The translations under genes and the position numbers were made by a program. A DNA stretch of 37,572 nucleotides from a virus (lineage: Duplodnaviria > Heunggongvirae > Uroviricota > Caudoviricetes): IMG/VR virus record IMGVR_UViG_3300028887_000087. One strand, 5' to 3'. The notes beneath the pieces are model-generated. The model did no database searches and was not told the DNA's origin. It saw only the letters and a list, made by a program, of their open reading frames with translations. Position 1 is the stretch's first letter. Each line of letters opens with the position of its first letter. Positions 10,374 through 37,572 of this stretch are shown one piece after another.

Positions 10374-10760
10374 GTCGTCAGTATAAAGGTGAACGTCTTT
10401 TACATCCCAATCTTTTACAAGCTGCTCTGCAACAGTTGCAGAGCAAGGTATTTGCTGTAAGTTGTATAATACGCTTTTCTTTACGCCGTATTTTTGGAAC
10501 ATTTCAGTGACCCTAAGATAATCATCAATACGATACTTGTAAGAACGGAAAGATTCCCAAACTCGATAAAAGCCAAAGAAAGTCCAAGGAACAGCAATCA
10601 CCCACCATACGATATGAAGTGGAGTAAACAAATTACCCCACCAATGATGTGCGACAAGTATATCACAAATCAAAGAACCAAGAGTCCAACCGAGTTCGAT
10701 AAAAGAGTACTTGTTGAATTTAAACCACAACTTAATCTGCGTCTTCATTTGTGAATACAC
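10368..10760 (-). CDS. Hypothetical membrane protein (about two TM segments)
   Basis: Hydrophobic, Trp-rich stretches. Overlaps the end of the SMC-like gene, suggesting co-transcription. Confidence 0.55.
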   Translation of the reverse strand: MYSQMKTQIKLWFKFNKYSFIELGWTLGSLICDILVAHHWWGNLFTPLHIVWWVIAVPWTFFGFYRVWESFRSYKYRIDDYLRVTEMFQKYGVKKSVLYNLQQIPCSATVAEQLVKDWDVKDVHLYTDDL

Positions 10761-12825
10761 CTTTTTCTGTATGATAACAGATAACTGAATTACTCAAAGA
10801 CTTGATAATGTCACGAGTTGCCTCTTTATGAGTAATAAAAAATATCTGATTGAAAATGTTTGAACTTATCAAAGATTCCATTGTAAGAACTGAATTGCCT
10901 TCAGATGCAGCAGCGTCAATTTCATCAAGAGCAATAAACGAAAGGTTGTAAGCCTTACACAATGCAACTTTGAAAGCAAGCCCCAATACAGACTTTTCAT
11001 AACCTGAAGCCATCTTTGAATTGATAAGTTTCTTTATGTCAGTCATATCAACATTTGGGTCTGTTGTGTAGAAGAATTCAACACCTCTTCTTGATTGCAA
11101 CAATCTCAAACGGAAATTCGGGAAAACAATATTTACGAAGTTGTTCATTTCAGCTTCAAGCTTTGCACAAGTTTTTACTACAAGGTAATTAGGCAATTCT
11201 TTATCAAGAACTCTTAATACTTCATTGTAAGTTTGAACATTCAAATCAATATCTGAAATCAAGTTTCTGAAAACTTCAATGTTCTTTTCGTTTTCAAGTA
11301 TTTCATTTTTGATTGACATTCTCTGAAGCTCAACAACTTTGTTATGGTCTGCAATTTCATCAGAGCCTTTAATCTTTTCCTCAAGGTCAGCGATTTCAGT
11401 TTTCAACTTAGACCTCTCAAGTGTCTTTTTATCTCTTTCACTCAATTGGTCATCATAGTCGTGTATTAAATCATATAAAGGTTTTGCCTTATCATCAAGT
11501 TCTTTAAGCTTATCCTCAAACTCTTTAATCTTTTCTTCAGGAATAAGTTTTGCTTTTTCAGCAGCTTCTTGCTGTCCCAACATTTTTGCTTCAGTATCAA
11601 GTCTTGAAATGTTTGTCTCAATAGCAGATATTTCTTTACGCTGGGCTGCAACCTCATCTTTATATTTATTCATTTCAATAATAAGATTGTCTTTCTTTTC
11701 GATTTCACCACCAATCTTATCATCGTATTCTTCTTTTTCCTTGATAATCTTTTCATTATCAATATCATCAGTAGGCTTTCCACACTCAGGACAAATACCT
11801 TTCTTTGCTAATTCAAGTTTGTGGTCGCAATTCTTTTTTGCAGCATTAAGCTCACCTATCTGAACATTGATACTTGAGATTGAAGTTTCCAATTGGGCAA
11901 TTGTATTTTTCTTATCTTTGATAACATCTTCAGCAACAGCTTTATTCACTATAGCATTAGCGACTTCTCTTGATAAAGTAGCGACCTGCGATGGGTAGTC
12001 AGCTTTCTTTAATGCTTCATTAGCCTTCTTATTGTCAAGAAGTTTTTGTGAGATACTTGATTTCTGATTTTCAATTGTATCAATCATTCCTTGGATGTCT
12101 GTTTTCTTTTGCAAGATTTCAAATGTTTTATCCAAGTCGTTGCTCAACTTTTCAACCTGAGCTTTTTTGTCCTCAAGTTCATTTTTATAATTATCGTAAT
12201 CTTCTTTTGAGAAAGAAAAATCTTTTTCTTTCAAAGATTTCAATGTTGTGTCTTTTTGTTTATTTGCTTTCTCTAAGAAGTCAATCTTATCAATATCGAG
12301 TTCCTTGTTCTTTACAAACTCTTCAAGCTTTTCCTGAATTGGGCCAATCTCTTCAGTAAAGTCAAATTGGAAAAGTCGCTGCAACAAGTTCAATCGCATA
12401 ACAGGTGTCATTGTTGCAATGTCGTCCTGTCCTTGCATTTGCATAATGATGTCAGAATAGAAAGTAAAGTCGAGTTCTTTGATAAGCTCGGTTACTTCAG
12501 AATTGATATAGTGACGGTCTTTATACAACACATCTCTTTCAAGAGGTGTACCGCCTTTATGATTGAGGTTTACATCAAAGATAATTTGTTCATCGTTATA
12601 AATTAAATCAAGAATAATTTTTGCGTGGTCGTGTGGCTTTTGAATAAACTCTTTTACAGAGTCGGAGCGTTTTCTTTCGGAAAGACAAATTGCAATTGCT
12701 TCCATAACTGCCGATTTTCCCTGACCGTTATCACCTTCAATAATAATGCAGTTTGCATCAAAATTCAAATCGGCTTCAGTGATACACATAAAATGTTCAA
12801 GATGAAGAGACTTTAGTATTAACAT
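10732..12825 (-). CDS. SbcC/Rad50/T4 gp46-like recombination ATPase
   Basis: Walker A GDNGQGKS, Q-loop MQMQGQ, long coiled coil, zinc hook CPECG, signature ASGYE, Walker B IALDEID, H-loop ITHK. Confidence 0.92.
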   Translation of the reverse strand: MLILKSLHLEHFMCITEADLNFDANCIIIEGDNGQGKSAVMEAIAICLSERKRSDSVKEFIQKPHDHAKIILDLIYNDEQIIFDVNLNHKGGTPLERDVLYKDRHYINSEVTELIKELDFTFYSDIIMQMQGQDDIATMTPVMRLNLLQRLFQFDFTEEIGPIQEKLEEFVKNKELDIDKIDFLEKANKQKDTTLKSLKEKDFSFSKEDYDNYKNELEDKKAQVEKLSNDLDKTFEILQKKTDIQGMIDTIENQKSSISQKLLDNKKANEALKKADYPSQVATLSREVANAIVNKAVAEDVIKDKKNTIAQLETSISSINVQIGELNAAKKNCDHKLELAKKGICPECGKPTDDIDNEKIIKEKEEYDDKIGGEIEKKDNLIIEMNKYKDEVAAQRKEISAIETNISRLDTEAKMLGQQEAAEKAKLIPEEKIKEFEDKLKELDDKAKPLYDLIHDYDDQLSERDKKTLERSKLKTEIADLEEKIKGSDEIADHNKVVELQRMSIKNEILENEKNIEVFRNLISDIDLNVQTYNEVLRVLDKELPNYLVVKTCAKLEAEMNNFVNIVFPNFRLRLLQSRRGVEFFYTTDPNVDMTDIKKLINSKMASGYEKSVLGLAFKVALCKAYNLSFIALDEIDAAASEGNSVLTMESLISSNIFNQIFFITHKEATRDIIKSLSNSVICYHTEKGVFTNEDAD

Positions 12826-15911: not shown

Positions 15912-18491
15912 ATGAATACTTTCTATGGTGTTTGGTCGCCTGCTTTAGGTGTCTTACCTTCAGTTACAGATTTAGATTTTGCCGCATATTACATAACAGA
16001 AAGTGGAGCGCTTAACGGTACCCAATATACAAAAGATAAATGGCTTGTTTACATTTGCGAGTCAAGAGGTACTCTTTCAGAACGCTCTTATTGGCGTATC
16101 ACTGATGGTATAGTTTGCTTTAATCCTGATAGACATACAAACGTCCCAGACGCAGGTTGGTATACAAAAGTTCGACTTGATAACGCAGGAAATATTGTTG
16201 CAGGAGGCGACATTGAATATGATGATTTGCCTCAAGAAGTTTATCAAAAACTCGAAGCAATAACTGACGACAATCTTAATAAGCTGATTGCTAAACAGCT
16301 CAGCACAATCTTTACAAATAATACACTCAACCCAATTCAATTTAAGTTTGACCAAGCTACAGGAAAAATTTCTGCAAACTTAAAACTTGACGAAGAAACA
16401 ATTGGCATCAATGAGTTTGGACAACTTTGCGCTGTAGGTCTTCCTGAAGGCGCGGAAGTTGGTGGCGGTTCAACAACACCTATCGTAAATGTTGATTTGT
16501 CTGCTGTCACATCAGAGATTACACAATTAAAGAACAGACTTAATAGTGTTGAAGAATCCCTTGTAAAGATTAAGCCACTCCCAGGTGACGGTATCAAAGT
16601 TGAAGTCACAAGAGGCGGTACAGTAATTTCAGTTGATATTGATGAAGATTCTTTGTCTTTCGACAGAGAAGGTCGTTTGTGTGTAAACCCAGACATTCTT
16701 ACTGATTACTTAAACGAAGGTGGTGGAGATTGTGCAAATCACCAACATACTGCAGACCAAATCAAAGACCTTGAACAATATATAAAGAACATAATCAATA
16801 ACGTATCTCTTTATCAAACTTTGGTTCAGAACTTAAGCAATCTCGTTGATGAAGAAACAATCATTATAAATAACAACGGCCAACTTGAAGCGATTGCAAC
16901 TCACGTCCAAAAACATCAACATAAGATGGACGACATCACTGACCTTAATCAGGACATTGCGAACGTTTGGGCAACTAATCAAAGACTTCATAAGAGCAAC
17001 GAAAATCAAGACTTTAATAGCGGCGCGGTTATGATGTCGTCATTGACAGTAGGTGAAGTACTTATTGCTTTCAACCAACTCTTAAAAGACTATAAAGATG
17101 CAATTGACAACATAGACGACAGAGTTGGAACAATCGAGCCTACAGAGCCTGAATGTCTTGACTTAATTGATATTAAAAACAAAGCAGAAGAGATTGAAGT
17201 TCTTGATGTAAACACATTGAAAAATACTTGGGCTGCAAATAAAATCTTTGTAGGTACTGACGGTATCATTTTCTATAATGGCTGCCGTGTTGAAGCTTAC
17301 ATTGATGATGTTCTTGTTGAAACATTGAATTGTTATGACGATGAGAATACAACTTTTGCAGAAGGCAGAAGAGGTAAGTTTAACATAACTTATTATGGTG
17401 AAGCTTATCCTAAATTCAAATCATTTCACGGTTATTATAAAGGCTTCTCTTTCGATTATGAAACTGAAATTGAAGAAGGTACTCACAAAGTTTATTTTAT
17501 TCAAAGAAGTGTAAATGACCCAGATATTTTCTGGAAATCAAATACAGTTTATGTAAATGTTTACAATGACTTTGAGCCTTCAGGAAGAATTGAGATTGTA
17601 AAGCAGCCTACTTATAACAATTATGTCTCAGGCGTTAAAGCATCTAATGGTGATATTGATATTTCATTCAGACTTATCGTTAAGAACTTCAAAAATCAAT
17701 ATGCGCCTATTGACCCAATCAATGTTGATGTGGGTTATATAATTCCTTGTAAGGCTGAAGAGTATAGCGGCAATCAACTTGTTTATGAATTAAAAGAAAT
17801 CTCTTTAGACGATTACTTTGGTAAGATTAAGTTTACTGCTGAGGTTAAAAGTCTTACAAGAAGTACAACAATCGAACAAGAAACTGACTTTATAAATATT
17901 GATTACTCAGACGAAGAAGAATACCGTTATGTAGGTCTTTCTCCTTATGCTCCTGAGAATGGAGTTATTGAAGCAGTTCAAAAATATGTACCTACTGATG
18001 TGCTTCCTTTTGATGAGGCACAGGTAAAAGATCATAGTGCAATTGTAGGTAAAACTGATTATACACAATTCGGTATTGGACCTGATTACAGCGATAAGCC
18101 TGCAACACAAGTAATAACTTTAAGATTCCCTTGTCCTAGAATGAACAACTTTTATATGGACATTGTTGATGATGAAGACCAACCTTATCCTGTAAACAAA
18201 AATGGAACATTAAAAGGTATTGAAATTTATGCATCAGTTGCTCCTTCAAATGTTCTTACTCGTTGGGTAAATTGTAATGTACCTTATGCAGGTTTCGGAC
18301 ATTGGGAAAACAGAGATAACTTCAGCGGTCTTGACTTATTCAGAAGTACACAAGAAAGAAGATGGGTGACTTTCGGTAAAGACCCAATTGTTGATGAAGG
18401 TTATTTATACATAAAATTATTGATAAGCAAGCCTGTTAATTTAAGAGCTCTTGTCAAGTCGATAGAGGAGTCAATCAATGAGCGTAGATAA
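15912..18491 (+). CDS. Large putative virion structural protein (tail/baseplate/fibre)
   Basis: 859 aa. HQHTADQIKDL and HQHKMDDITDL are phage-tail-type repeats. The C-terminus is paralogous to that of the next gene. ACTAATT motif upstream. Confidence 0.6.
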   Translation: MNTFYGVWSPALGVLPSVTDLDFAAYYITESGALNGTQYTKDKWLVYICESRGTLSERSYWRITDGIVCFNPDRHTNVPDAGWYTKVRLDNAGNIVAGGDIEYDDLPQEVYQKLEAITDDNLNKLIAKQLSTIFTNNTLNPIQFKFDQATGKISANLKLDEETIGINEFGQLCAVGLPEGAEVGGGSTTPIVNVDLSAVTSEITQLKNRLNSVEESLVKIKPLPGDGIKVEVTRGGTVISVDIDEDSLSFDREGRLCVNPDILTDYLNEGGGDCANHQHTADQIKDLEQYIKNIINNVSLYQTLVQNLSNLVDEETIIINNNGQLEAIATHVQKHQHKMDDITDLNQDIANVWATNQRLHKSNENQDFNSGAVMMSSLTVGEVLIAFNQLLKDYKDAIDNIDDRVGTIEPTEPECLDLIDIKNKAEEIEVLDVNTLKNTWAANKIFVGTDGIIFYNGCRVEAYIDDVLVETLNCYDDENTTFAEGRRGKFNITYYGEAYPKFKSFHGYYKGFSFDYETEIEEGTHKVYFIQRSVNDPDIFWKSNTVYVNVYNDFEPSGRIEIVKQPTYNNYVSGVKASNGDIDISFRLIVKNFKNQYAPIDPINVDVGYIIPCKAEEYSGNQLVYELKEISLDDYFGKIKFTAEVKSLTRSTTIEQETDFINIDYSDEEEYRYVGLSPYAPENGVIEAVQKYVPTDVLPFDEAQVKDHSAIVGKTDYTQFGIGPDYSDKPATQVITLRFPCPRMNNFYMDIVDDEDQPYPVNKNGTLKGIEIYASVAPSNVLTRWVNCNVPYAGFGHWENRDNFSGLDLFRSTQERRWVTFGKDPIVDEGYLYIKLLISKPVNLRALVKSIEESINERR

Positions 18492-20544
18492 ATATACAAA
18501 ACATATTGCAGAAGCCTCATACAAGAATGTTATCAAGAACAAATCAAACACTGATAACAATCTTGCTTGGTTTGAGGAGCCTGAAACAGTATCACCTAAG
18601 GTTGATGCAAAATCAATATGGCTTGACTCTGAATTCATTCCTGCTTCTCCTGAAGGTCTTATTTGGCGCGGAGATTTGTATTATGCAACAATCGGCGGAA
18701 GTTCAGTCCCAGTTGTTGAAAAATTTACACATATCAAAGTTGACAAAGTAAATGACCGCGCCGTTTTCTTTTCAGAAAAACTTATTGATGTTATTCAGAA
18801 CGAAGAATGGCATTTGACAATTGAAGACGCAAACGGCGACGTAATTCCTTTCGGTCTCAAAAAGTGGACAATTGATATAGGTGTAGGCTATCTTTCATTC
18901 ACAGATGGTATGCCTGAATATGATATGCCATTCTATATCACAGGCTATCGTTATTGCGGACGCAAGCTTCCTGAGCATATGATTACGACAGATGGTCGTC
19001 AGGAAATGTTGCCCGATTATACACCTGAGAAAGATCAGCAAGTTGCAACAAAAGCTTATGTTGACCAAGAGCTTATTAAAATTGGTGTTGATGTAAACAA
19101 GATGTTGCCTCCTGAGCCTGATACATTTGATAGTAAGGACTTGACATTTATTTGTGATAAAGAGTTTGATGCAACAGATATAAAAACAAACGAACACTTC
19201 GACCACATTATTCTTGACGATTACGAGTTTACAATTGATGTCCCAGAATTTTATAACCCTGGGTATGGTACTGTAAAATTGCTTGTAAGTATCAACGGCG
19301 TTTGGCAGGAAGTAGGAAGAATTGAATTAGACTTGAATAACCCAGTTGCTCAGAACTTGACAATCGACTATGCAGGAGAAGCATATCCTGACTCTTTGTC
19401 AGCAAGAGGATTCTTCAAAAAGATTAAGTGTCATTTTACATCTTCATTAAGAGAAATGTCGGGCGTTATATCTTCCCACGTTTATCCTATGATATTCAAA
19501 GTGTCATACACTTACAATTCAACAATCTTCTTCTCTAATGAATTGATTGTATGTGAAGAGTTGCAACAAGATAAAGATACTTTATTAAATGAAAGAATTG
19601 TTTTATCAACAAGACCAGCAACATTCGGGTACAGATATGTTTCAGGTATTTTAACACCAAGAACAGGCGATATTATTACAGCATCACATCTTAATTATAG
19701 AACATTAAAGAAGTTTACAAAAGGAACTCATATTTCAAAGATGTCTGCTTTCGGAATTGATTATGAAAGATTCCCAGAACTTACTTATGATGCTTACAAC
19801 CCACCTCTTGAAATAAAAGAAGACTTGGTTATCCCAGAAGGTATTTATCAAGAAGTCACAACAATTGATGCAGAGACTTACAACATTTTTGGTGATGTAA
19901 ACGGTGAACACCACGCTGATTATAATTTCCGCATTGATACAATCTCTGATGAAAGTCGTCGTGTTTATTCAGGCGAAGTTCAGGACCAAATGATTGTAAA
20001 TAGTTGCGGCGAATGGGACCCACAAACAGACTTAAGAGAATACAATGAATTGCAAATGCTCGCAGGTAAGTATCAGTGGCCTGAGCTTGACTTCTCAATC
20101 AACGGAACTGGGTATATTACTTCGGGTGTGTTCTCTGATGTATCTTGGATAAAGACAGGTCTTAATTATAGCGAATGTCCTAAAATGGGAAAGCGTTATG
20201 TGACTTTGAAATATGATATGAAAATTGCAAACGGTATTTTCATCAACTTCGAAGATGCTGAAGGTATTACACAAGACAAAGACACAAAAGCTTTCAATGT
20301 TGACTCAATGTATATTAAAGTTTTAGGTGCAACTGATTGGCTTGATGCGAAAGAGCCTTATGACGGCATTGGTATCAATGACAAATGGATGCAAGGTTGT
20401 CTTGCAGTTCAGGACTCAAAAGAAGGTAAGATTTATTGTACTTTCGGACCAAAACCTATTGAAGGCATTTTATATATTCGTATCGGCGTAAGATATGACC
20501 AACATATCAAATTCCGTGACGTCACTATCAAAGAGAATATTTAA
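18478..20544 (+). CDS. Large putative virion structural protein
   Basis: 688 aa. ATKAYVDQE fibre-type motif. C-terminal WLDAKEPYDG...IYCTFG...ILYIRIG matches the previous gene. Confidence 0.6.
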   Translation: MSVDKYTKHIAEASYKNVIKNKSNTDNNLAWFEEPETVSPKVDAKSIWLDSEFIPASPEGLIWRGDLYYATIGGSSVPVVEKFTHIKVDKVNDRAVFFSEKLIDVIQNEEWHLTIEDANGDVIPFGLKKWTIDIGVGYLSFTDGMPEYDMPFYITGYRYCGRKLPEHMITTDGRQEMLPDYTPEKDQQVATKAYVDQELIKIGVDVNKMLPPEPDTFDSKDLTFICDKEFDATDIKTNEHFDHIILDDYEFTIDVPEFYNPGYGTVKLLVSINGVWQEVGRIELDLNNPVAQNLTIDYAGEAYPDSLSARGFFKKIKCHFTSSLREMSGVISSHVYPMIFKVSYTYNSTIFFSNELIVCEELQQDKDTLLNERIVLSTRPATFGYRYVSGILTPRTGDIITASHLNYRTLKKFTKGTHISKMSAFGIDYERFPELTYDAYNPPLEIKEDLVIPEGIYQEVTTIDAETYNIFGDVNGEHHADYNFRIDTISDESRRVYSGEVQDQMIVNSCGEWDPQTDLREYNELQMLAGKYQWPELDFSINGTGYITSGVFSDVSWIKTGLNYSECPKMGKRYVTLKYDMKIANGIFINFEDAEGITQDKDTKAFNVDSMYIKVLGATDWLDAKEPYDGIGINDKWMQGCLAVQDSKEGKIYCTFGPKPIEGILYIRIGVRYDQHIKFRDVTIKENI

Positions 20545-20565: not shown

Positions 20566-21444
20566 ATGTATATAAATAAAGATTGCTTTGAGGTTATGGC
20601 ATCCCTTGAGGATGCCTCTATTGATTTAATAGTGTGTGATCCGCCTTACGGGATTTCGTTTGATGGTTCAAATCATATGCAAAACTCTGACTGGGATAAA
20701 ATGTCTGATGAAGAGTACGAGGGTTTCCTAGACAAATTCCTGGCGGAATGCAAAAGAGTGTTGAAGCCTACGGGTTCAATGTGGATGTTTTACGGCATAA
20801 CAAAAATTGAAACAGTTATAAAATGTGTTAACCGCAGCGGCTTATTCAATCATTGGGAAAATGCGATGGTTTATTGTCGACCTAAAGGAAGAGGAGCAAC
20901 ACATAAACTTAAGTCACAACGCGAAGAGATTATGCATTTGACAAAAGACCCAACAAAATATACTTGGAATGCAGTTGAATATTTGCGAGAAGTTATTGTT
21001 CCTTATGTAAAGGATGGTAAGCCAAGAGGTTGGGCGCTCGACCAATCGACAGGAATGAGAGTAAGATGGACAGGACTTGGTAATGTTTCATTCTTTACTC
21101 CGCCTGCATATAATAATGTCGGTGAAAAACAAATACACAGCTGCCAAAAGCCTGTCTTATTGTTTACTGAATTGATTATGGTTTCGTCTCTTAAAGGACA
21201 AACAGTTCTTGACCCGTTTATGGGTTCAGGTTCTTCAGGAATTGCTGCGTATCTTTGTGACCGCAATTACATTGGAGTCGAACTTGAAAAAGATATGTTT
21301 GAAAAAGCTGAACAGTGGCGAAAGGAAGCTGAAGGCAACACAAGGTGCCATCAGTTCCTAATGGAATATATCAAGAAACACGCAAGCTCATCAGAAAAAG
21401 GATTCCGTTTTGGCTGGGATTCAAGATTGATATTGCCTAAGTAA
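20566..21444 (+). CDS. DNA methyltransferase, N6-adenine/N4-cytosine, beta class
   Basis: Catalytic DPPY near the N-terminus, HSCQKP, and SAM-binding VLDPFMGSGSSG near the C-terminus. No cognate nuclease nearby. Confidence 0.92.
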   Translation: MYINKDCFEVMASLEDASIDLIVCDPPYGISFDGSNHMQNSDWDKMSDEEYEGFLDKFLAECKRVLKPTGSMWMFYGITKIETVIKCVNRSGLFNHWENAMVYCRPKGRGATHKLKSQREEIMHLTKDPTKYTWNAVEYLREVIVPYVKDGKPRGWALDQSTGMRVRWTGLGNVSFFTPPAYNNVGEKQIHSCQKPVLLFTELIMVSSLKGQTVLDPFMGSGSSGIAAYLCDRNYIGVELEKDMFEKAEQWRKEAEGNTRCHQFLMEYIKKHASSSEKGFRFGWDSRLILPK

Positions 21445-26593: not shown

Positions 26594-27418
26594 ATGAGAA
26601 AATTTAAAGTAGAAGAGCCTATTGAACTTAATCGTCATAACGACGAAGTTATCAGAGAAGAACTTCTTTGGCCTTTATATGGAAAAATTTTGAATGATGA
26701 TGTCGTAAAGACAGGCGCAAATGCTTCACAAGTTGAAGGACAATCTTCTTATGCCGAAATTCTTGCAAAGACTGTTCAGCTTGACCCATATTCACCTTAT
26801 GTTTATATCGACAAAATGTTTCAGACACCAAAGAAGTATGTAAAGTCGGAACTTGATTGGTACAAGTCTATGGACTTGTCAATCATAGGACACGAGGGAA
26901 TTGAAAGCAATCCAACTTGGCAGTCGTGCTGCACACAAGATGAGAAAAAGCTTGTCAATTCAAATTATGGTTGGTGTGTTTTCAGTGAAGAAAACGGAAG
27001 TCAGTATGATGAGTGTTTGAATGTTTTGAAAAAAGACAAGACAACTCGTAATGCAATTATTGTTTACAACCGTCCTGAAATCTACAAAGATTACAAAAGA
27101 GACGGAATGCACGATATGATTTGCACAATGTATTCACATTTCTTCATTCGTGATAACAAATTATTTATGGTTCACAATATGAGAAGTAACGATGTTCGTT
27201 ATGGCTTCATTTGTTCTGACCTTGCTTGGAATTGTTTCGTTTATCAAAATATGTACGAAGACTTGAAGGAAACATATCCTGACCTTGAAGCTGGTACAAT
27301 TATTTGGACATCAGATTCAATGCACATTTATGACCGTCATTATGACGACCTTAAAAAACTTTTTGAAGAGAGAACCGCTTTCTCTGAAGCAAAAAGACAA
27401 AATTGGTGGAATGATTAG
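26594..27418 (+). CDS. dCMP hydroxymethylase-like (T4 gp42 family, thymidylate synthase fold)
   Basis: ELDWYKS, NSNYGWCVFSE, DGMHDMICT, FIRDNKL, MRSNDVRYGFICSDLAW and IIWTSDSMHIYDRH parallel T4 gp42 (NSNYGWAIWSE, DGMSDFMCT, MRSNDVVFGFRNDYAW, as recalled). Confidence 0.85.
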   Translation: MRKFKVEEPIELNRHNDEVIREELLWPLYGKILNDDVVKTGANASQVEGQSSYAEILAKTVQLDPYSPYVYIDKMFQTPKKYVKSELDWYKSMDLSIIGHEGIESNPTWQSCCTQDEKKLVNSNYGWCVFSEENGSQYDECLNVLKKDKTTRNAIIVYNRPEIYKDYKRDGMHDMICTMYSHFFIRDNKLFMVHNMRSNDVRYGFICSDLAWNCFVYQNMYEDLKETYPDLEAGTIIWTSDSMHIYDRHYDDLKKLFEERTAFSEAKRQNWWND

Positions 27419-27420
27419 TT

Positions 27421-28176
27421 ATGGAATTTAAATCTTGTGGTAAATGCAAAGACGGGTACATATACAAAACTGACCCGACAGGTTTCTTTCAGGTCGCTAC
27501 GGAGTGTGATTGCCACAAGAAGTGGGTTGCAGAAAATCAGTTAGAGAGACAGTTCAAACATAACGGATTTGATATGCGCCACTTCAACTATTCACCTCGT
27601 TCTTATGCGGGTACAAAGTCCGCAGCGGATAAAGACCGTTTAGTAAATTATGTAAAGCAGTTTGAACTCAATCCTGAAGTAAGAAAGTTGATGGTTTATA
27701 TGTATGGACCAAACGGTACACAAAAGTCAACACTTGCCTCTTGGGTAGGTAAGTCTTTATTGTCAAAAGGCTTTTCAGTAAGATATGTATTGATGAACGA
27801 TTTGATACATACACTTATGGACGCTGAAGACTTCAACGAAGAACGAAAAGAAAAAGCCAAAGCAAAAATTGAAAAGCTTGAAAACACAGACCTTGTAATT
27901 GTTGATGAGTCTTTTGACAAAGAGAAGATGAAGCTTTACAAAAGTGGTTTTATGTTATCCTTCCTTGACTCTTGGATTCGTAAAAGAACAGGTCAGCTCA
28001 ATAAGGGTATTTTATTTGTAAGTAATGTAAAGATTGAAGATATTGAGTCGAACGGACTTTCTCATTCAATTCAGGATTTCGTTGAAAGAGAAGTTAAGTT
28101 GCATAATTGTTATCTTCAGTTCTTGGACAATTATTTGCAGTCTACAACTGTCGAGTTTACGGGCAGCTTATTCTAA
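27421..28176 (+). CDS. DnaC/IstB-like helicase loader ATPase
   Basis: N-terminal CxxC...CDC zinc site, Walker A-like GPNGTQKS, Walker B DLVIVDE. Directly upstream of the DnaB-like helicase. Confidence 0.75.
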   Translation: MEFKSCGKCKDGYIYKTDPTGFFQVATECDCHKKWVAENQLERQFKHNGFDMRHFNYSPRSYAGTKSAADKDRLVNYVKQFELNPEVRKLMVYMYGPNGTQKSTLASWVGKSLLSKGFSVRYVLMNDLIHTLMDAEDFNEERKEKAKAKIEKLENTDLVIVDESFDKEKMKLYKSGFMLSFLDSWIRKRTGQLNKGILFVSNVKIEDIESNGLSHSIQDFVEREVKLHNCYLQFLDNYLQSTTVEFTGSLF

Positions 28177-28196: not shown

Positions 28197-29645
28197 ATGA
28201 ACAATAAGGTTGAAAACTTAGATGAGCAGACTTCCGTAAATGTTGCGGAAATGAGATTGCTTAACGCCCTTTATGTAAACAAAGACAACTTTCAAGTCAC
28301 AGGCGTTGAAAAAGATTTATTCGTTCACGAGACTTATAAAGACATATTCGACTCAATCGAAAAACTTACAAACAACAACATCCCTTTAACAACTCAAGCA
28401 TTATTTCAGGATGCATCAGCAAGAAACATCAATGTCACATTTGATGTTATTAAAGCTATTGCAGGTATCAACACAAATCCTGATGTTGTTATTAAAGACG
28501 CAGTTGAAATGTTGCAGGACACAAAGATGTCTGTCAATGCTCTTAAGCGTCTTGATGAAGTAAGAAAACTTGTTTCAGAAAACCCAATTCGTAGCGATGA
28601 AGTAAATGAAAAAATCAAAAAACTTTTGTATGAAAGCGAAAGTGACTTGATGCCGATAACAAGAAAGCAGCGTATTATGACTCTCGAAGATGTTGAAAAA
28701 ACATATATGGAAAACTTCGAAGATCGTAAGAACGGTAAGCAGTATATGTTCGGCGACCCAATCCTTGATAAGTATGTAAAGTACGGCCCAGCGCCTGGGT
28801 GTGGTGGTTTGATTGCTGCAGCGACAGGTATGGGTAAGTCTGCTTGGTGTTTGAACTTGATTAACAGAATGATGGTGTCAAGAGTTCCTCTTATGTATTA
28901 TTCTTTGGAAATGGGACTTATGGACACATTCGACCGTGACATTGCTTTGAACACAGGAATTGATATGGACACAATCGTCAATCCTCCTGACAAAGAAATG
29001 TTTGAAATGGTTAAGAAAGAAATCAAAAATCAGTTCGCAATATTGAAACAAAACCCGAATTTCCGTTTCAGTGAATGTGCTTCGATTTCTTTAACTCAAG
29101 TTAAGCAGGACATCAAAAAATTCCAGCAGGACATCGGACAAGAATATATGGTTGTTGTGTTCGACTTGCTTTCGATGATTAAAGAGTTTATGATTACTGA
29201 TGAAAAGGGTATGAACTTTGCACAGGGTATTGAAGTTGCAATCAACGTCCTTAATGCAATGGCAAAGGAACTAGGTTTCCATTATATCGCTGTTCTTCAG
29301 ATGAATCGTAAAGGTGAAGGTGAAGCACAACACATTGATGACCTTGATGATTTGAATAAGTTCCGTCCTGTAAGAAATCAAATCAAAAATGCGGGTGCCT
29401 TCCTTGAGCGTGTTCGTTGGGCTGTAGGTTTGTTCAGACCAAAGTATTATGCTGAACTTTATATCGAAGACAAAGAACTTTGGGAAGACTTACCAGATTA
29501 TTGTGAAATGCATATGCTTAAACAGAATCAGGGTAAGATTGGTCGTTTAGGAAAATATTTGTTTGACCCAGATATTATGAAAATGACCCCACTTGAAGAG
29601 GATGACGAGGAAGAAGAATCTTCTGAAGAAAAAGAGGAACAGTAA
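28197..29645 (+). CDS. dnaB: Replicative DNA helicase, DnaB family
   Basis: Walker A AAATGMGKS, YYSLEM, VVVFDLL, VLQMNR, IKNAGAFLE, LKQNQG. Confidence 0.85.
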   Translation: MNNKVENLDEQTSVNVAEMRLLNALYVNKDNFQVTGVEKDLFVHETYKDIFDSIEKLTNNNIPLTTQALFQDASARNINVTFDVIKAIAGINTNPDVVIKDAVEMLQDTKMSVNALKRLDEVRKLVSENPIRSDEVNEKIKKLLYESESDLMPITRKQRIMTLEDVEKTYMENFEDRKNGKQYMFGDPILDKYVKYGPAPGCGGLIAAATGMGKSAWCLNLINRMMVSRVPLMYYSLEMGLMDTFDRDIALNTGIDMDTIVNPPDKEMFEMVKKEIKNQFAILKQNPNFRFSECASISLTQVKQDIKKFQQDIGQEYMVVVFDLLSMIKEFMITDEKGMNFAQGIEVAINVLNAMAKELGFHYIAVLQMNRKGEGEAQHIDDLDDLNKFRPVRNQIKNAGAFLERVRWAVGLFRPKYYAELYIEDKELWEDLPDYCEMHMLKQNQGKIGRLGKYLFDPDIMKMTPLEEDDEEEESSEEKEEQ

Positions 29646-30190
29646 TGGCTTATAAAATAAATGTTGATGGAGTTGACAAATATCTCTTTGGTCTTTTTCA
29701 GGAAAAAGATAAAACAATCAGATGCGAAAAATGCGGTGACCTTTACAAAGCAGAAGGACAAACTTTTGTTTGGGAAATGAATGACCGCTTCAAAGGACTT
29801 TGTCGCCATTGTTATCTTCGAAAACTTAATGACAATTTTACTGAAGAAGACGCTCTTGAATTTGCAAAAGAAGCTTTAACTAATCGTGACTATATGGGAA
29901 GACCTCGAGTAAGCTCTGAAGTTGATGGTAAGAATTGGGAACAATATGTTGAGCCAAAAATTAAAGAATTGAGAGCAGCAGAAAAGAAAGCTGCGGAAGA
30001 AGCATATCATCAAGAAAAGTTGAATGAAGCTCAACAGATTATTGATGATGCAAGAAATGCGCATCCTACCGGTAATATGAATCCCGATTGGTTTGAGCTT
30101 GAAGTTATTGCAAAACTTCTTGAAAGAATGGACAAGCTTGAAAAGAAAATACCTCCAAGAGATTGGAGAAATGAGCCGTTTACAATATGA
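29645..30190 (+). CDS. Hypothetical protein with a CxxC...CxxC zinc finger
   Basis: RCEKCG...LCRHCY. Translationally coupled to the helicase (TAATG). Confidence 0.6.
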   Translation: MAYKINVDGVDKYLFGLFQEKDKTIRCEKCGDLYKAEGQTFVWEMNDRFKGLCRHCYLRKLNDNFTEEDALEFAKEALTNRDYMGRPRVSSEVDGKNWEQYVEPKIKELRAAEKKAAEEAYHQEKLNEAQQIIDDARNAHPTGNMNPDWFELEVIAKLLERMDKLEKKIPPRDWRNEPFTI

Positions 30191-30537
30191 GTTTGAAAGA
30201 AGTCACAAGAGGCAGATATATGGATGAACTTAAAGAAGTACATCTCGCTTTTGAAGAAAATATTTTAGGTAAATGGGTTGCAACATTTGTGAAGCCTGAA
30301 AATTATATCACAGGATATTCAATGCTCAAATGTGGTGATGATTATGTTGCAATACAAAGTAAATACGATGACAATCCTTGGGATTTTTCAAAAGAATATT
30401 TTGACTCATTTACGATTGAAGAGTTTGATGATTGCCTTATAATAACCGCGCCTCGAAAAGAATATATTTATAAGGATGTAAAGTTGGTGTATCGTTTTGA
30501 CACGGAGCTAGATAATGCTTGGGATGGACTTTTCTGA
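30187..30537 (+). CDS. Hypothetical protein (paralog of the next gene)
   Basis: 116 aa. VKPENYITGYS and YVAIQ are shared with the downstream ORF. Confidence 0.6.
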   Translation: MSLKEVTRGRYMDELKEVHLAFEENILGKWVATFVKPENYITGYSMLKCGDDYVAIQSKYDDNPWDFSKEYFDSFTIEEFDDCLIITAPRKEYIYKDVKLVYRFDTELDNAWDGLF

Positions 30538-30826
30538 TAATTTAGAAACTGAGGAATTAGAGTTTCACCTTGACCAAAATTATGATTATGTTTCAAACTG
30601 GGTAAAGCCAATAAATTATGTTGCAGGCTATGCAACAATTTATATGAATGATGAAGTTTGGGCAATTCAAAACTATTCAACATTATCTTGGTTGAAAGCA
30701 AAGCAAGATGCGGACTTTAGTTTAGAAGAAAACGATAAAGAGATTGTCTTAAAAGTTCACGACCCAGGAGTTTTTGATTGGGATGCGACTTTCAAAATAT
30801 CTTATAGGTGCTTTACACAATCGTGA
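30515..30826 (+). CDS. Hypothetical protein (paralog of the previous gene)
   Basis: 103 aa. VKPINYVAGYA and VWAIQ. Exact start uncertain. Confidence 0.6.
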   Translation: MLGMDFSDNLETEELEFHLDQNYDYVSNWVKPINYVAGYATIYMNDEVWAIQNYSTLSWLKAKQDADFSLEENDKEIVLKVHDPGVFDWDATFKISYRCFTQS

Positions 30827-30992
30827 TAAACTTATAGCCTAAAAGTTGAGCGGATTCTTCGATAGCTATTTTATGTTGTCTTGAGAGTGAATGACTTGCA
30901 AAAGTTGCATCAGCAATTGAATGATAAGGACCAAAGAAGTCATAGTCATTGTATAAATAGAAGTTGTTATTTGCTTTTACAATTTTTAACAT
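30813..30992 (-). CDS. Small hypothetical protein (59 aa, absent from the ORF track)
   Basis: MLKIVKANNNFYLYNDYDFFGPYHSIADATF...YKFITIV*. Fills the gap and has an ACTAAAT motif 4 nt upstream on the - strand. Confidence 0.55.
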   Translation of the reverse strand: MLKIVKANNNFYLYNDYDFFGPYHSIADATFASHSLSRQHKIAIEESAQLLGYKFITIV

Positions 30993-31050
30993 AAAATTTA
31001 GTTAATATAAAATATAAGATTATGGCACATTTCGGTGCTAGGGAGAATAT

Positions 31051-31476
31051 ATGTTTATAAAGAAAAAAGAAAATTGTCGTGAAGGCGGACAGAGAGGATA
31101 CTTTTTGTTGACCTGTGACTTTGCTTCACTTCAAGCACGACTTGCTTCAATTGATACATTTCTTAATGAATGTCCTGATGCAACATTTGACTCACCTGAA
31201 GGACAAAAAGCTAAACCTGACCCAGTTCTTTATTCGGTATATCGTGACGGTTCAGATACATCTGACTTGCACTCGATGACAGGTTTTGGTACATTCGTAG
31301 GTTCAATTGGAATGAAAGCAATCAGAGTTCACGATGATGTTGATAATAAAGATTACGTTTTTGCAGATAGCTCAAAAGTAAGAGTTGAAAGAGCAGGATG
31401 TCCTGCTGATGGTTTGGTTATTAAGGCTTGTGAATTGCAGCCTACTGACCATATTCTCGAACATATGAAAAAGTAA
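31051..31476 (+). CDS. Family A DNA polymerase fragment (motif A region) with a Hint-like C-terminal tail
   Basis: GYFLLTCDFASLQARL corresponds to PolA motif A (D-Y/F-S-x-x-E-x-R), followed by DLHSMTG. Own GGGAG RBS, in-frame TAG upstream, TAA at 31474-31476. Confidence 0.7.
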   Translation: MFIKKKENCREGGQRGYFLLTCDFASLQARLASIDTFLNECPDATFDSPEGQKAKPDPVLYSVYRDGSDTSDLHSMTGFGTFVGSIGMKAIRVHDDVDNKDYVFADSSKVRVERAGCPADGLVIKACELQPTDHILEHMKK

Positions 31477-31477
31477 T

Positions 31478-31831
31478 ATGAGTTTAAAAGAAAGTATACG
31501 CGATTCTGAAAATGATAATGTTCTTCGTAACGTTCTTGGTTGGCTTGCGATGAACGGTTATTTATTGAATGAAGAAGTCGCCGCTTATATAAGAAGAGAA
31601 AAGCTCGAAAACAATCGTATTACGAAAACTGAAGTACATAAGCATAAAGGCAGAATAGTAGATACTTACGAAGTGATTGTTTATATGAACGATGATTGGG
31701 CATTTGATGTAAAGGCAACAGGCTTTGACAACATTTTAGAATGTGCTATTATTGAATTGCATCCTGCTTTTAACGAGCCATCAACTCAAATTGTTTATAA
31801 AGACAAAATACTTTTTGAAGATGGAATATGA
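31478..31831 (+). CDS. Hypothetical protein
   Basis: 117 aa directly after the Pol fragment. N-terminus MSLKES. Confidence 0.6.
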   Translation: MSLKESIRDSENDNVLRNVLGWLAMNGYLLNEEVAAYIRREKLENNRITKTEVHKHKGRIVDTYEVIVYMNDDWAFDVKATGFDNILECAIIELHPAFNEPSTQIVYKDKILFEDGI

Positions 31832-32235
31832 TAGGTGTAATGGTATGCGGCTCAAGAACAATTACTGATGTTCCTTGGGTTGAGAAACAGATTATAGATT
31901 ATCTCAAAGAGATTGATGCTGAACATCAGAAAAAGTTTGGTTCTAGCGATAGAGACTTTATAATTATACAAGGCCTTGCCAAAGGTGTTGATATGATTGC
32001 AAAAAACTTCGCTGATAATCATAATCTTGGTACTTGGGATTTTCCTGCAGAATGGGATAAATACGGAAAAGCAGCAGGACATATTCGCAATGAAATAATG
32101 GTTGATAAATGTGATTATTGTCTTATCTTATGGGACGGTACATCACTCGGAACAAAGAACGATATTGAACACTGTCATAAGAAAAATAAACCTCACAAGA
32201 TAATTGTTTACAACAACCCTCGAAAGATAAAATAA
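31828..32235 (+). CDS. SLOG-superfamily protein (DUF2493/YspA-like)
   Basis: VMVCGSR, IIQGLAKGVD, AEWDKYGKAAGHIRN, WDGTSLGT. Confidence 0.85.
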   Translation: MIGVMVCGSRTITDVPWVEKQIIDYLKEIDAEHQKKFGSSDRDFIIIQGLAKGVDMIAKNFADNHNLGTWDFPAEWDKYGKAAGHIRNEIMVDKCDYCLILWDGTSLGTKNDIEHCHKKNKPHKIIVYNNPRKIK

Positions 32236-32267
32236 GTTCCACTAAATATTTATTAGTGGAGACTATA

Positions 32268-33314
32268 ATGGCTGAACAGATAAAAGAAGCAAAGGAAGAT
32301 AATTACGGTGCTTTGAATTCTCAGTTTGACGAACTTTTCGCTATGACTGATAAAGCTCGCGAATATGAGGACGACCTTATCGGCGCAATCTTCGATGCAA
32401 AAGAAGGTGACGACGATGCTGAAATTTTCCTTTTGAACAAATGTAAGAAAATGATTTTCTATACTTTCTGGACAAACTTCATCGGAAAGGAAGCTTCAAA
32501 GAAAGTTATCAGAATGAGAATTGCAAACGGTGAGTTTGGTGATTTCTTGTCTTTGGTTTATATCGCATTTGAAAAAGCTATCAAAGCATTCAACCCAGAC
32601 GAATATCAGGATATGAAGATTGGAAACTTCCAGTACTATCTTGGTCGTTATTTGAAGGCTGAAGCAATTTCATACAACAACAAAGAAGATGATGACCCAA
32701 CAAAAGGCGCAGTAAATCCTGACGGTATGACTTCTGAAACAGAAAGCAAAGGCGCAGGTACAGGCAACGCTTGGGATTCAATGGTTGGCGGTGCTGAAGA
32801 TACACACGATGCAGACTTCCTTGAAGATTGGAATGAATTCTGCCGCGACCCAAGAATGAACGAACCTCTTTCAAAGAAAATCTCAACTCCAAGAAAAGTT
32901 GTTATTGCAAAAGTATTAAAAGGTGACAAGACAGTTCCACAGATTGCAGATGAACTTGGTGTGACAAAAGCAACACTTTACTCTGCACTTGATATTGGTG
33001 ATATTTTGAAAGATCACGGTATTACACAATCTGAAATGGCTCGTCAGTTAAGCATCAACCCTGATGCAATCCTTGACCCACTCAAAGAATCAAAGAAAGT
33101 TGAAGACAACAAACTTGTAGAAAGTTTCCTTAAAGAAAGCTTCAACCCAGGGTACAATGCTGATGAAGCAATTGAAAAGTTCTGTATTTTGATGGACTGG
33201 GAAGTTACACCTGAAGATGTTAAGAGCACTTGCGAATGTGATGGCAAAATTGGTATCACACTTAACGATGGTCAGCAGTTCGTTTACGACGCAGAGAACG
33301 ATTGTTTGTGTTAA
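32268..33314 (+). CDS. RNA polymerase sigma-factor-like protein
   Basis: Region-2-like DFLSLVYIAFEKAIKAFNPD...FQYYLGRYLK and region-4 HTH KTVPQIADELGVTKATLYS. ATG at 32268 follows GTGGAG; the ORF track starts at the GTG at 32256. Confidence 0.65.
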   Translation: MAEQIKEAKEDNYGALNSQFDELFAMTDKAREYEDDLIGAIFDAKEGDDDAEIFLLNKCKKMIFYTFWTNFIGKEASKKVIRMRIANGEFGDFLSLVYIAFEKAIKAFNPDEYQDMKIGNFQYYLGRYLKAEAISYNNKEDDDPTKGAVNPDGMTSETESKGAGTGNAWDSMVGGAEDTHDADFLEDWNEFCRDPRMNEPLSKKISTPRKVVIAKVLKGDKTVPQIADELGVTKATLYSALDIGDILKDHGITQSEMARQLSINPDAILDPLKESKKVEDNKLVESFLKESFNPGYNADEAIEKFCILMDWEVTPEDVKSTCECDGKIGITLNDGQQFVYDAENDCLC

Positions 33315-33499
33315 GAGTACAACATAGATTGAGCTAGGTGTATCATTTGTTCATCAACTGTATCACCTAACTTAATTGTTCCGTACTGACGGATCATATC
33401 TTTATTACAGCATTTCGGACAGGCAGGAGTTTCTCCTGCCTTTATTTTTACTATTTCTTCCTTTTTACATTCAGGACAAACAAACTTAATCTTTATCAT
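33311..33499 (-). CDS. Small zinc-ribbon protein (FmdB-like)
   Basis: CPECKKE...CPKC, 62 aa. Confidence 0.65.
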   Translation of the reverse strand: MIKIKFVCPECKKEEIVKIKAGETPACPKCCNKDMIRQYGTIKLGDTVDEQMIHLAQSMLYS

Positions 33500-33968
33500 A
33501 AATATCTCCGCAGGCTTTAATTATATCGTCTTTTGTAATGATATTAACAAACTGAAAAGTACTTTTATGTATCTCATTATAAGGTAACTTCTCTAAGTGC
33601 TTAATGTGAAATGAAAATTGTTTTTTGTAAAGTTCAGATACTGCCGACCAATCGAAAATATAAGAACGGCAATCACCTCTTGCAACCTGAATACCCCAAG
33701 CAAGATAACACTTTGCTCCTTTTACTTTTGAAAACTCATCAAGATAAAAAGCCTGATGCTCTTCAACTCTTTTCATTGAACAAGCCATCATCTTTTTGTT
33801 GAATTTTGCTTCAAGGTAAACGGGGCTATCTCCGATACGACCAATCATATCAAAGCATCTTTTGATTGTTGCGGCAAATTGGCCAGTAGGGTCTGGGATT
33901 TTATATCCTACCCCAGCTTCATTAAGTGCGTGCATAATAACAGAACAATACTCTGCTTCTGTCTTCAT
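33486..33968 (-). CDS. Holliday junction resolvase-like PD-(D/E)xK nuclease (RecU/Hjc type)
   Basis: TEAEY...CFDMIG...VYLEAKF. GGAGG RBS. Confidence 0.65.
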   Translation of the reverse strand: MKTEAEYCSVIMHALNEAGVGYKIPDPTGQFAATIKRCFDMIGRIGDSPVYLEAKFNKKMMACSMKRVEEHQAFYLDEFSKVKGAKCYLAWGIQVARGDCRSYIFDWSAVSELYKKQFSFHIKHLEKLPYNEIHKSTFQFVNIITKDDIIKACGDIYDKD

Positions 33969-36510: not shown

Positions 36511-36893
36511 GGGCCTGTACAGGTTTCGACCTACAGAGAACTTAATAACATCAAGCAGGGTGTCGACCCATATAATACGAAACAAAATAACTGCAACTAA
36601 ACGTTCAGTTTTTGCTCGTGGTTCACGCGCAGTTTTCGCTCGCGCTGCTGCCTAAGGCAAATCCTAGTTGGACTCATTGAAGACCAACTGCGACTTTCGT
36701 GATTCCGTTAGCGGAATGTTCGTATCGACCAACGGATAACCTTGCAAAGGTTTCGGTGGATGTTTTCCTTGTAAGGCGAAATAAAAACCCAGCAGTGGTT
36801 TTGGTTGTTCCCGCCCAAGATACAACCTTAAGCTTGTAAAGAAGTGTTATGCAGTTGCTGTATGGGACCCGAGTTCAATTCTCGGCAGGTCCA
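36511..36893 (+). ncRNA. ssrA: tmRNA (transfer-messenger RNA)
   Basis: 5' GGGCCTG-TACAGGTTTCGAC pairs with 3' CAGGTCC-A, including the G3:U wobble and discriminator A. T-arm CCGAG-TTCAATT-CTCGG. Resume context AAAATAACT-GCA. Tag ORF 36593-36655 ends in AAA*. CCA is not encoded. Confidence 0.92.

Positions 36894-37572
<679 letters not shown>

Follow-up and report, generated by a model that had tools for sequence, protein, structure and literature searches.

The window analysed here is a 37,572-nucleotide (nt) stretch of DNA from a virus of the Caudoviricetes (IMG/VR record IMGVR_UViG_3300028887_000087), and our subject is one of its genes, encoding a protein of 141 amino acids (aa) that carries a fragment of a family A DNA polymerase (PolA). 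Our analysis indicates that the replicative PolA of this virus is probably made of separately encoded subunits, non-covalently joined through intein-derived β modules, as the first-pass annotation, which was made from the sequence without database searches, had proposed; this reading is carried by the complementary polymerase pieces that are found in close relatives, by the conservation of the breakpoints, by a predicted three-chain fold, and by the Hint fold of the joining module, which was recovered with two aligners in four libraries.

In the proposed arrangement, the 141-aa protein would be the second of the three subunits (piece 2) of a Pol I-type, distantly T5-like replicative polymerase of an uncultured phage of about 300 kilobases (kb): piece 1 (~686 aa) would contribute the thumb and the ...NFQNIP... 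segment along with an N-terminal domain and the 3'-5' exonuclease; from piece 2 would come D23 on its motif A strand, Q28 at the steric-gate position, and the helices of the fingers through the DxH motif; and motifs B (the O helix) and C would be provided by piece 3 (~350 aa). The three chains would be translated separately from distant genes and would fold into one palm/fingers core, with the joint between pieces 2 and 3 lying inside a small β-rich module at the fingers tip, to which the tail of piece 2 would give five strands and the head of piece 3 one long strand. This module would be a shrunken Hint (intein) fold that is broken roughly at the position where split inteins are broken; since the nucleophile block, the conserved block B histidine, the terminal asparagine and the +1 Cys/Ser/Thr are missing, it could not splice and would act as a clasp. 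We infer that the pieces bind one another in the cell, that the heterotrimer is functional, and that the chains are not joined covalently.

The polymerase content of the 141-aa protein has been read from an alignment of 24 members of its family. Motif A occurs in the form D[FY][AS]SL[QE]ARL, with D23, S26, L27, R30 and L31 invariant, and the fingers motif of the DIHxxTA type occurs in the form SD[LM]HSMTG, with D72, H74, S75 and T77 invariant, while residue Q28 occupies the position of the steric-gate glutamate. The Pfam profile PF00476 does not match the protein directly, and a PF00476 scan of the related virus contig G002 also misses the copy of the protein that is encoded there; the tie to the family A polymerases is one of transitive homology, because the fused relative P0068 matches PF00476 at profile positions 4-197 (E 2.5e-23), a match that spans the homologous motif A segment, and contains an exonuclease domain too. 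Judged by its sequence, the N-terminal half of the 141-aa protein is the motif A and DxH helix portion of a family A polymerase. The invariance of the motif residues across the 24 members upholds the earlier description of the gene as holding only the motif A and DLH segment of PolA, and no exonuclease, motif B or motif C region was found in the window, where the large open reading frames (ORFs) are without a PF00476 or exonuclease match even at E<=10.

The other parts of the polymerase have been found in two relatives, the contig G002 (188 kb) and a contig of bin G001, in both of which the 141-aa protein has a 99%-identical copy; around the gene, G002 and the window are collinear, at 85-93% nt identity. 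The PF00476 scan of G002 and G001 returned an ORF of 686 aa (piece 1), which covers profile positions 3-150 and includes the 3'-5' exonuclease domain, and an ORF of 350 aa (piece 3), which covers positions 204-355 and includes motif B (RTVAKTENFG) and motif C (HDS). Profile positions ~150-204 are left uncovered by these two ORFs; as this is the part that contains motif A and the DxH helix, the 141-aa protein would supply what is missing.

The complementary pieces lie at loci distant from piece 2. The order of the genes in G002 is piece 3, a lysine-rich ORF of 201 aa, and piece 1, with a 5'-3' exonuclease gene and an Mre11-like gene upstream of the polymerase locus, while piece 2 is located ~55 kb from pieces 1 and 3, on the opposite strand; the layout recurs in a 259-kb contig of 73-77% identity, where ~107 kb separate piece 2 from piece 3. 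The only full-length PF00476 match in G002 and G001 is a bacterial-type frame of 871 aa on another contig of bin G001, i.e. the search gave no intact phage PolA, and the outcomes that the first-pass annotation had named as refuting its proposal were not encountered. The lysine-rich ORF (201-243 aa, no Pfam family) is always located between the genes of piece 3 and piece 1 (L004:2491-3096 of G002; L020:6043-6774), and could be an accessory subunit, or else what is left of a mobile element. Within the window, the 688-aa ORF at 18478-20544 is close to piece 1 in length (686 aa, open frame 688), but it is not a PolA.

The 141-aa ORF is a real, conserved gene under purifying selection and no chance ORF, because a word-index search with the protein returned 41 homologue clusters, all of them standalone proteins of 84-141 aa with identities down to 42%, and because the ratio of nonsynonymous to synonymous substitution rates (dN/dS), measured against a 77%-identical homologue, is 0.14 for the whole gene (0.10 for residues 1-85 and 0.13 for residues 86-141), although these values are rough, as dS is near saturation in this comparison. 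The same evidence bears on the alternative that the gene is a decaying remnant and that a complete polymerase is encoded elsewhere. A short, isolated ORF that lies far from the other polymerase genes and has no direct family match would agree with such an origin; we nevertheless hold it to be highly improbable, in view of the low dN/dS, the invariance of the catalytic motifs in the 24 members, the conservation of the standalone form at identities down to 42%, and the presence, in the two relatives searched with PF00476, of two complementary phage fragments and no intact phage PolA.

The assembly of the three pieces has been modelled by folding residues 400-686 of piece 1 together with piece 2 and piece 3, with a separate alignment for each. 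Two runs gave a model score of 0.78 and a third gave 0.81, while the best of 3 controls scored 0.00; the mark applied to this score is reached by 58 of 80 solved complexes and by 2 of 110 mismatched pairs. At least 89% of the contacts recur between the runs, and the predicted local distance difference test score (pLDDT) of the partners is at least 73. In the model, the motif C hairpin (piece 3 residues 208-216 and 248-250) has the motif A strand (piece 2 residues 16-22) at its side, with an expected error of 0.4-0.7 Å; residues 5-6 and 12-13 of piece 2 contact the strand 610-613 of piece 1, with an expected error of 0.5-0.7 Å; and residues 72-97, 103-109 and 129-141 of piece 2 contact residues 1-35 of piece 3. 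The model bears on the fit of pieces 1-3 to a single PolA fold and not on their binding in a cell; with its controls, this multimer-type modelling of the fragments supports their assembly. In the three-piece lineages, piece 3 carries a C-terminal extension of ~55 aa (L004:1219-2268, residues ~295-350), which is absent from the piece 3 forms of ~295-300 aa and for which the complex model gives no confident contacts to piece 2.

The part of piece 2 that meets piece 3 is the tail, i.e. residues 86-141, which had been likened to the second half of an intein N-fragment without the N-terminal Cys block and the TxxH; the structure comparisons bear out this likeness, as the matches are to Hint structures only and the residues in question are absent. 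The AlphaFold2 model of the 141-aa protein is poor overall (mean pLDDT 58), with a pLDDT of 70-81 in the tail, and a Foldseek search with it gave nothing at E<=1e-3. When the window tail was compared with 48,161 representatives from the Protein Data Bank (PDB), all of the rows that align to the tail were inteins or Hint domains: the PolII mini-intein (Z 5.4, root-mean-square deviation (rmsd) 1.6 Å over 47 aa), KlbA (Z 4.7, rmsd 1.7 Å over 46 aa) and the hedgehog Hint domain (Z 4.3, rmsd 1.7 Å over 51 aa), together with PI-PfuI, MchDnaB-1, Npu DnaE, NrdJ-1 and VidaL.

The whole module has been folded in the form in which it occurs in frame in a fused relative, P0051:70-156, with 19 aligned tails. 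This model (pLDDT 84, predicted template modelling (TM) score 0.72) consists of five short strands, a short helix, a long strand, and a helix that leads toward motif B. When P0051:70-156 was compared with 48,161 chains by VIA-align, the first 23 rows held nothing but inteins, hedgehog Hint domains and bacterial intein-like domains, with Z from 7.2 to 3.5, among them PI-PfuI (Z 7.2), the PolII mini-intein (7.1), gp41-1 (6.8; 20% identity, with an rmsd of 2.6 Å over 66 aa) and the consensus intein Cat (Z 6.4, rmsd 1.9 Å over 54 aa); no more than 63 chains have Z>=2, and unrelated structures begin at Z 3.2. The Foldseek search of the PDB with the same module is of similar outcome, the top 41 rows being all inteins or hedgehog domains (E 7e-3 to 0.4, probability 0.77-1.00, query TM-score 0.47-0.62), and the searches of the AlphaFold Database clusters and of the ESM Atlas also led to Hint or intein proteins. 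A language-model search for look-alikes of the module returned weak PolA clusters only (score <=0.82).

The part of the inteins that is matched comprises approximately residues 40-120 of their 130-150, which amounts to a partial fold, without the first ~40 residues (block A) and without the last strands (block G). On these models, residues 86-141 of the 141-aa protein and the first ~15 residues of piece 3 would together form a truncated Hint fold, and the break between the two would be situated near the split sites of gp41-1 and NrdJ-1, a position that was obtained by interpolating the aligned ranges. The register of the tail strands depends on the alignment: when the heads of piece 3 were included, MAFFT misplaced tail strands 3-4 onto the piece 3 head, and the correct register was obtained only without the heads.

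The residues that support the chemistry of protein splicing have been looked for in the module, across the wider family. The structural match starts at about intein residue 40-50 and there is no conserved Cys/Ser at the start of the module, i.e. the block A nucleophile is absent; the place of the block B TxxH is taken by the tail motif [ETP][TSD]D-x-[IL], where the histidine of TDH is confined to the close subfamily of the window; and in place of the terminal His-Asn and the +1 Cys/Ser/Thr, the piece 3 head ends in ...LTV-x-[D/E/Q], followed by an invariant phenylalanine (F15). An active, very small split intein, whose halves would be the tail and the head and whose trans-splicing would ligate the pieces, could account for the Hint fold of the module and for a break near the natural split position (as placed from the gp41-1 and NrdJ-1 ranges), and split inteins are known in phage replication genes (PMC2677866). 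It is nonetheless very unlikely that such an intein is at work here: block A is missing, with the match limited to ~residues 40-120 of the mini-inteins; Cys/Ser at the module start and the block B His are not conserved; Asp, Glu or Gln replaces Asn at the C-junction and the +1 residue is the invariant Phe; and the relatives P0051 and P0059 retain the whole module as a permanent in-frame insert. Because the splicing residues are absent and the relatives keep the module in frame, we favour a non-covalent clasp over trans-splicing, and the assembly of the pieces is most likely non-covalent.

The first-pass annotation had also offered joining at the level of RNA, by the trans-splicing of intron halves before translation, and this part of its proposal did not hold up. 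We found no point in its support, and we give it almost no credence: each of the pieces has its own start, ribosome-binding site and stop; the genes are 55-107 kb apart, on opposite strands, in the relatives; no Rfam family, intron-like or other, was found at E<=1 in 29500-33000; and the junctions are conserved as protein, the module being kept in frame in the fused relatives.

A further rival reading is that the β module is an ordinary insertion domain of the fingers tip (for example one that contacts DNA, the helicase or the clamp), which is merely Hint-like, and that the pieces associate mainly through the palm/fingers core. The module is kept in P0051 and P0059 without a break, which suggests that it is tolerated or useful when unsplit; it has no Pfam Hint match, and its Z values stay below 8. 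The complex model also agrees with this alternative, as most of the low-error contacts of piece 2 join its motif A strand to the motif C hairpin and do not involve the module. We consider an ordinary insertion unlikely, though, as the top 23 and the top 41 structure rows are exclusively Hint, which would not be expected of a generic β arrangement, as only P0051 and P0059 are unbroken among the profile-search relatives that were read, with the others ending inside the module, and as the predicted contact between tail and head is extensive.

Several further points weigh against a polymerase that is held together by intein-derived modules. Taken singly, the matches to Hint structures are of modest strength (Z <=7.2; Foldseek E >=7e-3); in P0051, P0047 and P0069 no Pfam model for Hint or intein domains reaches E<=1, and in the 141-aa protein none reaches E<=10; and the module model that is confident is the one from the fused relative P0051, which shares 24% identity with the window tail where the two align. 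In Pfam (E<=10), in PHROGs (E<=1) and among the PDB sequences, the 141-aa protein by itself finds no match, whether it is searched as a single sequence or as a profile, so that its putative membership in PolA draws on short invariant motifs and on transitive homology via the fused relatives. Pieces 1 and 3 are known from close relatives, and would be expected in the window's own genome. The success of the three-chain model may in part reflect a memory of the solved single-chain PolA fold. Finally, the alignment by hhalign of the piece 2 tail module with the piece 1 tail and with the inserts at other sites is in register, but weak (E 0.004-0.05, probability 1-9%).

This last comparison is concerned with the joint between piece 1 and piece 2, which may use a related module, the sequences being alike by eye. 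In P0047, P0056, P0069 and P0074, the junction of piece 1 with piece 2 is found in frame, as an insert before motif A. The strand 'LYTIVGSD' of piece 1, which phmmer aligns to motif A of Klenow, was tried as a duplicated motif A and was rejected, since its Asp shifts between GSD and GDS in relatives of 75% identity.

The breakpoints have been followed across the family through an exhaustive profile search from the 24-member alignment, which yielded 89 proteins, many of them fused forms; the word-index search for longer homologues of the 141-aa protein had yielded none. Many of the 89 are standalone middle pieces of ~95-150 aa. In 26 others, which are 599-889 aa long, the segment is situated at the C-terminus and ends at a shared break, '...L-x-ETD-x-L'; as read from their sequences, these are the N pieces of two-piece polymerases, and P0068 is one of them. 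In P0051 (443 aa) and P0059, pieces 2 and 3 are fused, and the tail, a linker of ~10 aa and the head follow one another in frame between the DxH motif and motif B. The relatives of piece 3 comprise 93 clusters of 221-499 aa. The same breakpoints are kept across a large family of related phages, in agreement with a split polymerase. A tblastn search of 50,697 GenBank phage records gave no match to piece 2 or to piece 3.

Two kinds of unusual arrangement were also met among the metagenomic proteins. P0044, P0200 and P0203 (491-499 aa) are permuted fusions, where piece 3, with motifs B and C, precedes piece 2 with its Hint-like tail; if these are real genes, the order of the chains would be free in this polymerase. 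P0085 (198 aa), a standalone middle piece, contains an extra in-frame β-rich insert of ~65 aa between motif A and the DxH motif. This insert resembles the tail module, with a weak hhalign match (E 0.0037, probability 9%), and would constitute a third insertion site. We tentatively raise the idea, which we regard as less than probable, that a truncated, non-splicing mini-Hint element has spread to at least three sites in the PolA of this phage clade (ahead of motif A, and on either side of DxH, towards motif A and towards motif B) as a permanent in-frame insert, and that repeated gene fission at the split-intein-like break point of the element has converted a single-chain polymerase into two- and three-subunit enzymes and even into permuted fusions. 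If this were so, domesticated intein relics would be a general route to multi-subunit polymerases, and would offer natural, orthogonal, non-covalent clasp pairs of ~55 + 15 residues.

The coordinates of the gene, of its parts and of its neighbours are collected in Table 1. The gene has its own ribosome-binding site, AGGGAG, as had been read earlier. The promoter motif that had been ascribed to it stood in part: the GTTAATAT box is present, and is enclosed by a sigma-70-like match at 30986-31013 (10/12), but the promoter scan found 8 matches against a shuffled expectation of 6.2 +/- 2.4, which is not above chance.

Table 1. Positions in the window of the putative middle-subunit gene, its upstream signals, its protein segments and the neighbouring genes
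Feature	Position	Strand	Basis
GTTAATAT box, promoter-like, with the ATG 43 nt downstream	31001..31008	+	read from sequence
AGGGAG ribosome-binding site, with the ATG 5 nt downstream	31040..31045	+	read from sequence
Putative middle-subunit gene (piece 2), 141 aa, stop codon included	31051..31476	+	ORF read, homologues, motifs, fold model, dN/dS
Residues 1-16, short basic head (MFIKKKEN...), predicted β pairing with the piece 1 tail	31051..31098	+	complex model; in-frame relatives
Residues 17-31, motif A strand and helix start (YFLLTCDFASLQARL)	31099..31143	+	invariant residues; PF00476 match of fused relative; complex model
Catalytic Asp D23, metal-binding	31117-31119	+	motif A
Residues 72-78, DLHSMTG, fingers motif of the DIHxxTA type	31264..31284	+	D72, H74, S75, T77 invariant
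Residues 86-141, predicted half (N side) of a Hint/intein-like module that is truncated and catalytically dead, with five β strands, ending ...LQPTDHILEHMKK	31306..31473	+	models and structure searches
Thymidylate-synthase-like gene	26594-27418		
IstB/DnaC-like ATPase	27421-28176		
DnaB-like helicase	28197-29645		
SLOG protein	31828-32235		
RecU-like nuclease	33486-33968	-	

The gene is situated in a neighbourhood of replication and recombination genes. Two stretches of the window that flank it, 31477-31827 and 30545-30810, are absent from the otherwise collinear G002: the first corresponds to an ORF of 117 aa (31478-31831) that directly follows the polymerase piece, and the second to most of the ORF 30515-30826, which is a 32%-identical paralogue of its neighbour at 30187-30537. 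No Pfam family was found in the small variable ORFs beside the split gene, two of which were scanned.

Elsewhere in the window, we note a transfer-messenger RNA (tmRNA) at 36511-36896 (+), for which ARAGORN gives the tag peptide ATKRSVFARGSRAVFARAAA and Rfam family RF00023 gives 83.9 bits over the full model, against a gathering threshold of 47; a match to the Rfam wcaG RNA motif (RF01761) at 37109-37216 (+), with 42.3 bits against a gathering threshold of 42 (E 3.9e-6), upstream of the ORF that starts at 37241; an SbcC/Rad50-like SMC ATPase at 10732-12825 (-), whose likely Mre11-like partner is encoded beside the polymerase locus of G002; an N6/N4 DNA methylase at 20566-21444 (+); and a weak match to a T4-like portal protein at 1-1125 (+).

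Family A polymerases are the textbook single-chain polymerases. In the enzyme that is proposed here, the metal-binding motifs A and C and the O helix would be located on different polypeptides, encoded by genes that lie tens of kb apart, across a large family of uncultured phages; such an enzyme would be a natural test of how far the active site of a polymerase can be assembled from parts. It would be equally a test of the re-use of dead inteins as subunit-association domains, and of the course that split genes take once endonuclease and splicing chemistry are gone, and its tail/head pairs could serve as natural heterodimerisation tags.

The closest parallel in the literature is that of the "fractured genes", i.e. 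phage-like replication genes that are interrupted inside a split intein, the two halves being often separated by a free-standing gene for a homing endonuclease (Dassa et al. 2009, PMC2677866); in the model of these authors, the process ends in the genomic uncoupling of the halves, as in the cyanobacterial DnaE and the Nanoarchaeum PolB (PMC2677866). Here also, a replication enzyme appears to be broken within a Hint-fold element, with the halves residing on two products and the genes uncoupled. The differences are that the element is truncated (~70 aa) and is without splicing residues, whereas the inteins of the fractured genes are active; that family A polymerase is not among the eight types of host enzyme that were listed (PMC2677866); and that there are two breaks and three pieces. 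A free-standing homing endonuclease is not seen either, as no Pfam endonuclease match was obtained in the ORF between pieces 3 and 1 of the relatives or in the ORFs that flank piece 2.

A second parallel is the PolA of T7-like cyanophages such as S-SBP1, which is split between exonuclease and polymerase, and was called the first split of PolA to be observed (Czernecki et al. 2023, PMC10201439). Both cases would consist of a phage family A polymerase made of separate, interacting polypeptides; in S-SBP1, however, the split occurs at the boundary of the exonuclease and polymerase domains, the genes are adjacent and there is no intein-like element, while here the breaks cut through the palm/fingers core (before motif A, and between the DxH motif and motif B) and the genes are scattered. 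Split polymerases without inteins are also known from other families: the family B polymerases of Aeromonas T4-like phages (gp43) and of Methanobacterium thermoautotrophicum (PolB), as cited in PMC2677866, and the minimal Pol III alpha of the group 2.2 jumbo phages, which is split and encoded by distant genes (Iyer et al. 2021, PMC7824862). These resemble the present case in that non-covalently associated fragments work or are predicted to work, and, in the jumbo phages, in that the genes are distant; they differ in belonging to other polymerase families, in being composed of two pieces only, and in that no Hint-derived clasp has been described for them.

Among cultured phages, the nearest sequences are those of the T5-like PolAs, for which the annotation gives one DNA polymerase gene; with the PolA of Proteus phage PM135 and of further T5-like phages, piece 1 shares 22-26% identity in an alignment to their exonuclease and N-terminal polymerase region. 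In the literature that we covered, which is incomplete, we found no published PolA that is broken within its catalytic core or is held together by dead intein relics. The finding extends known kinds, i.e. the split polymerases and the intein relics, and is not a new category.

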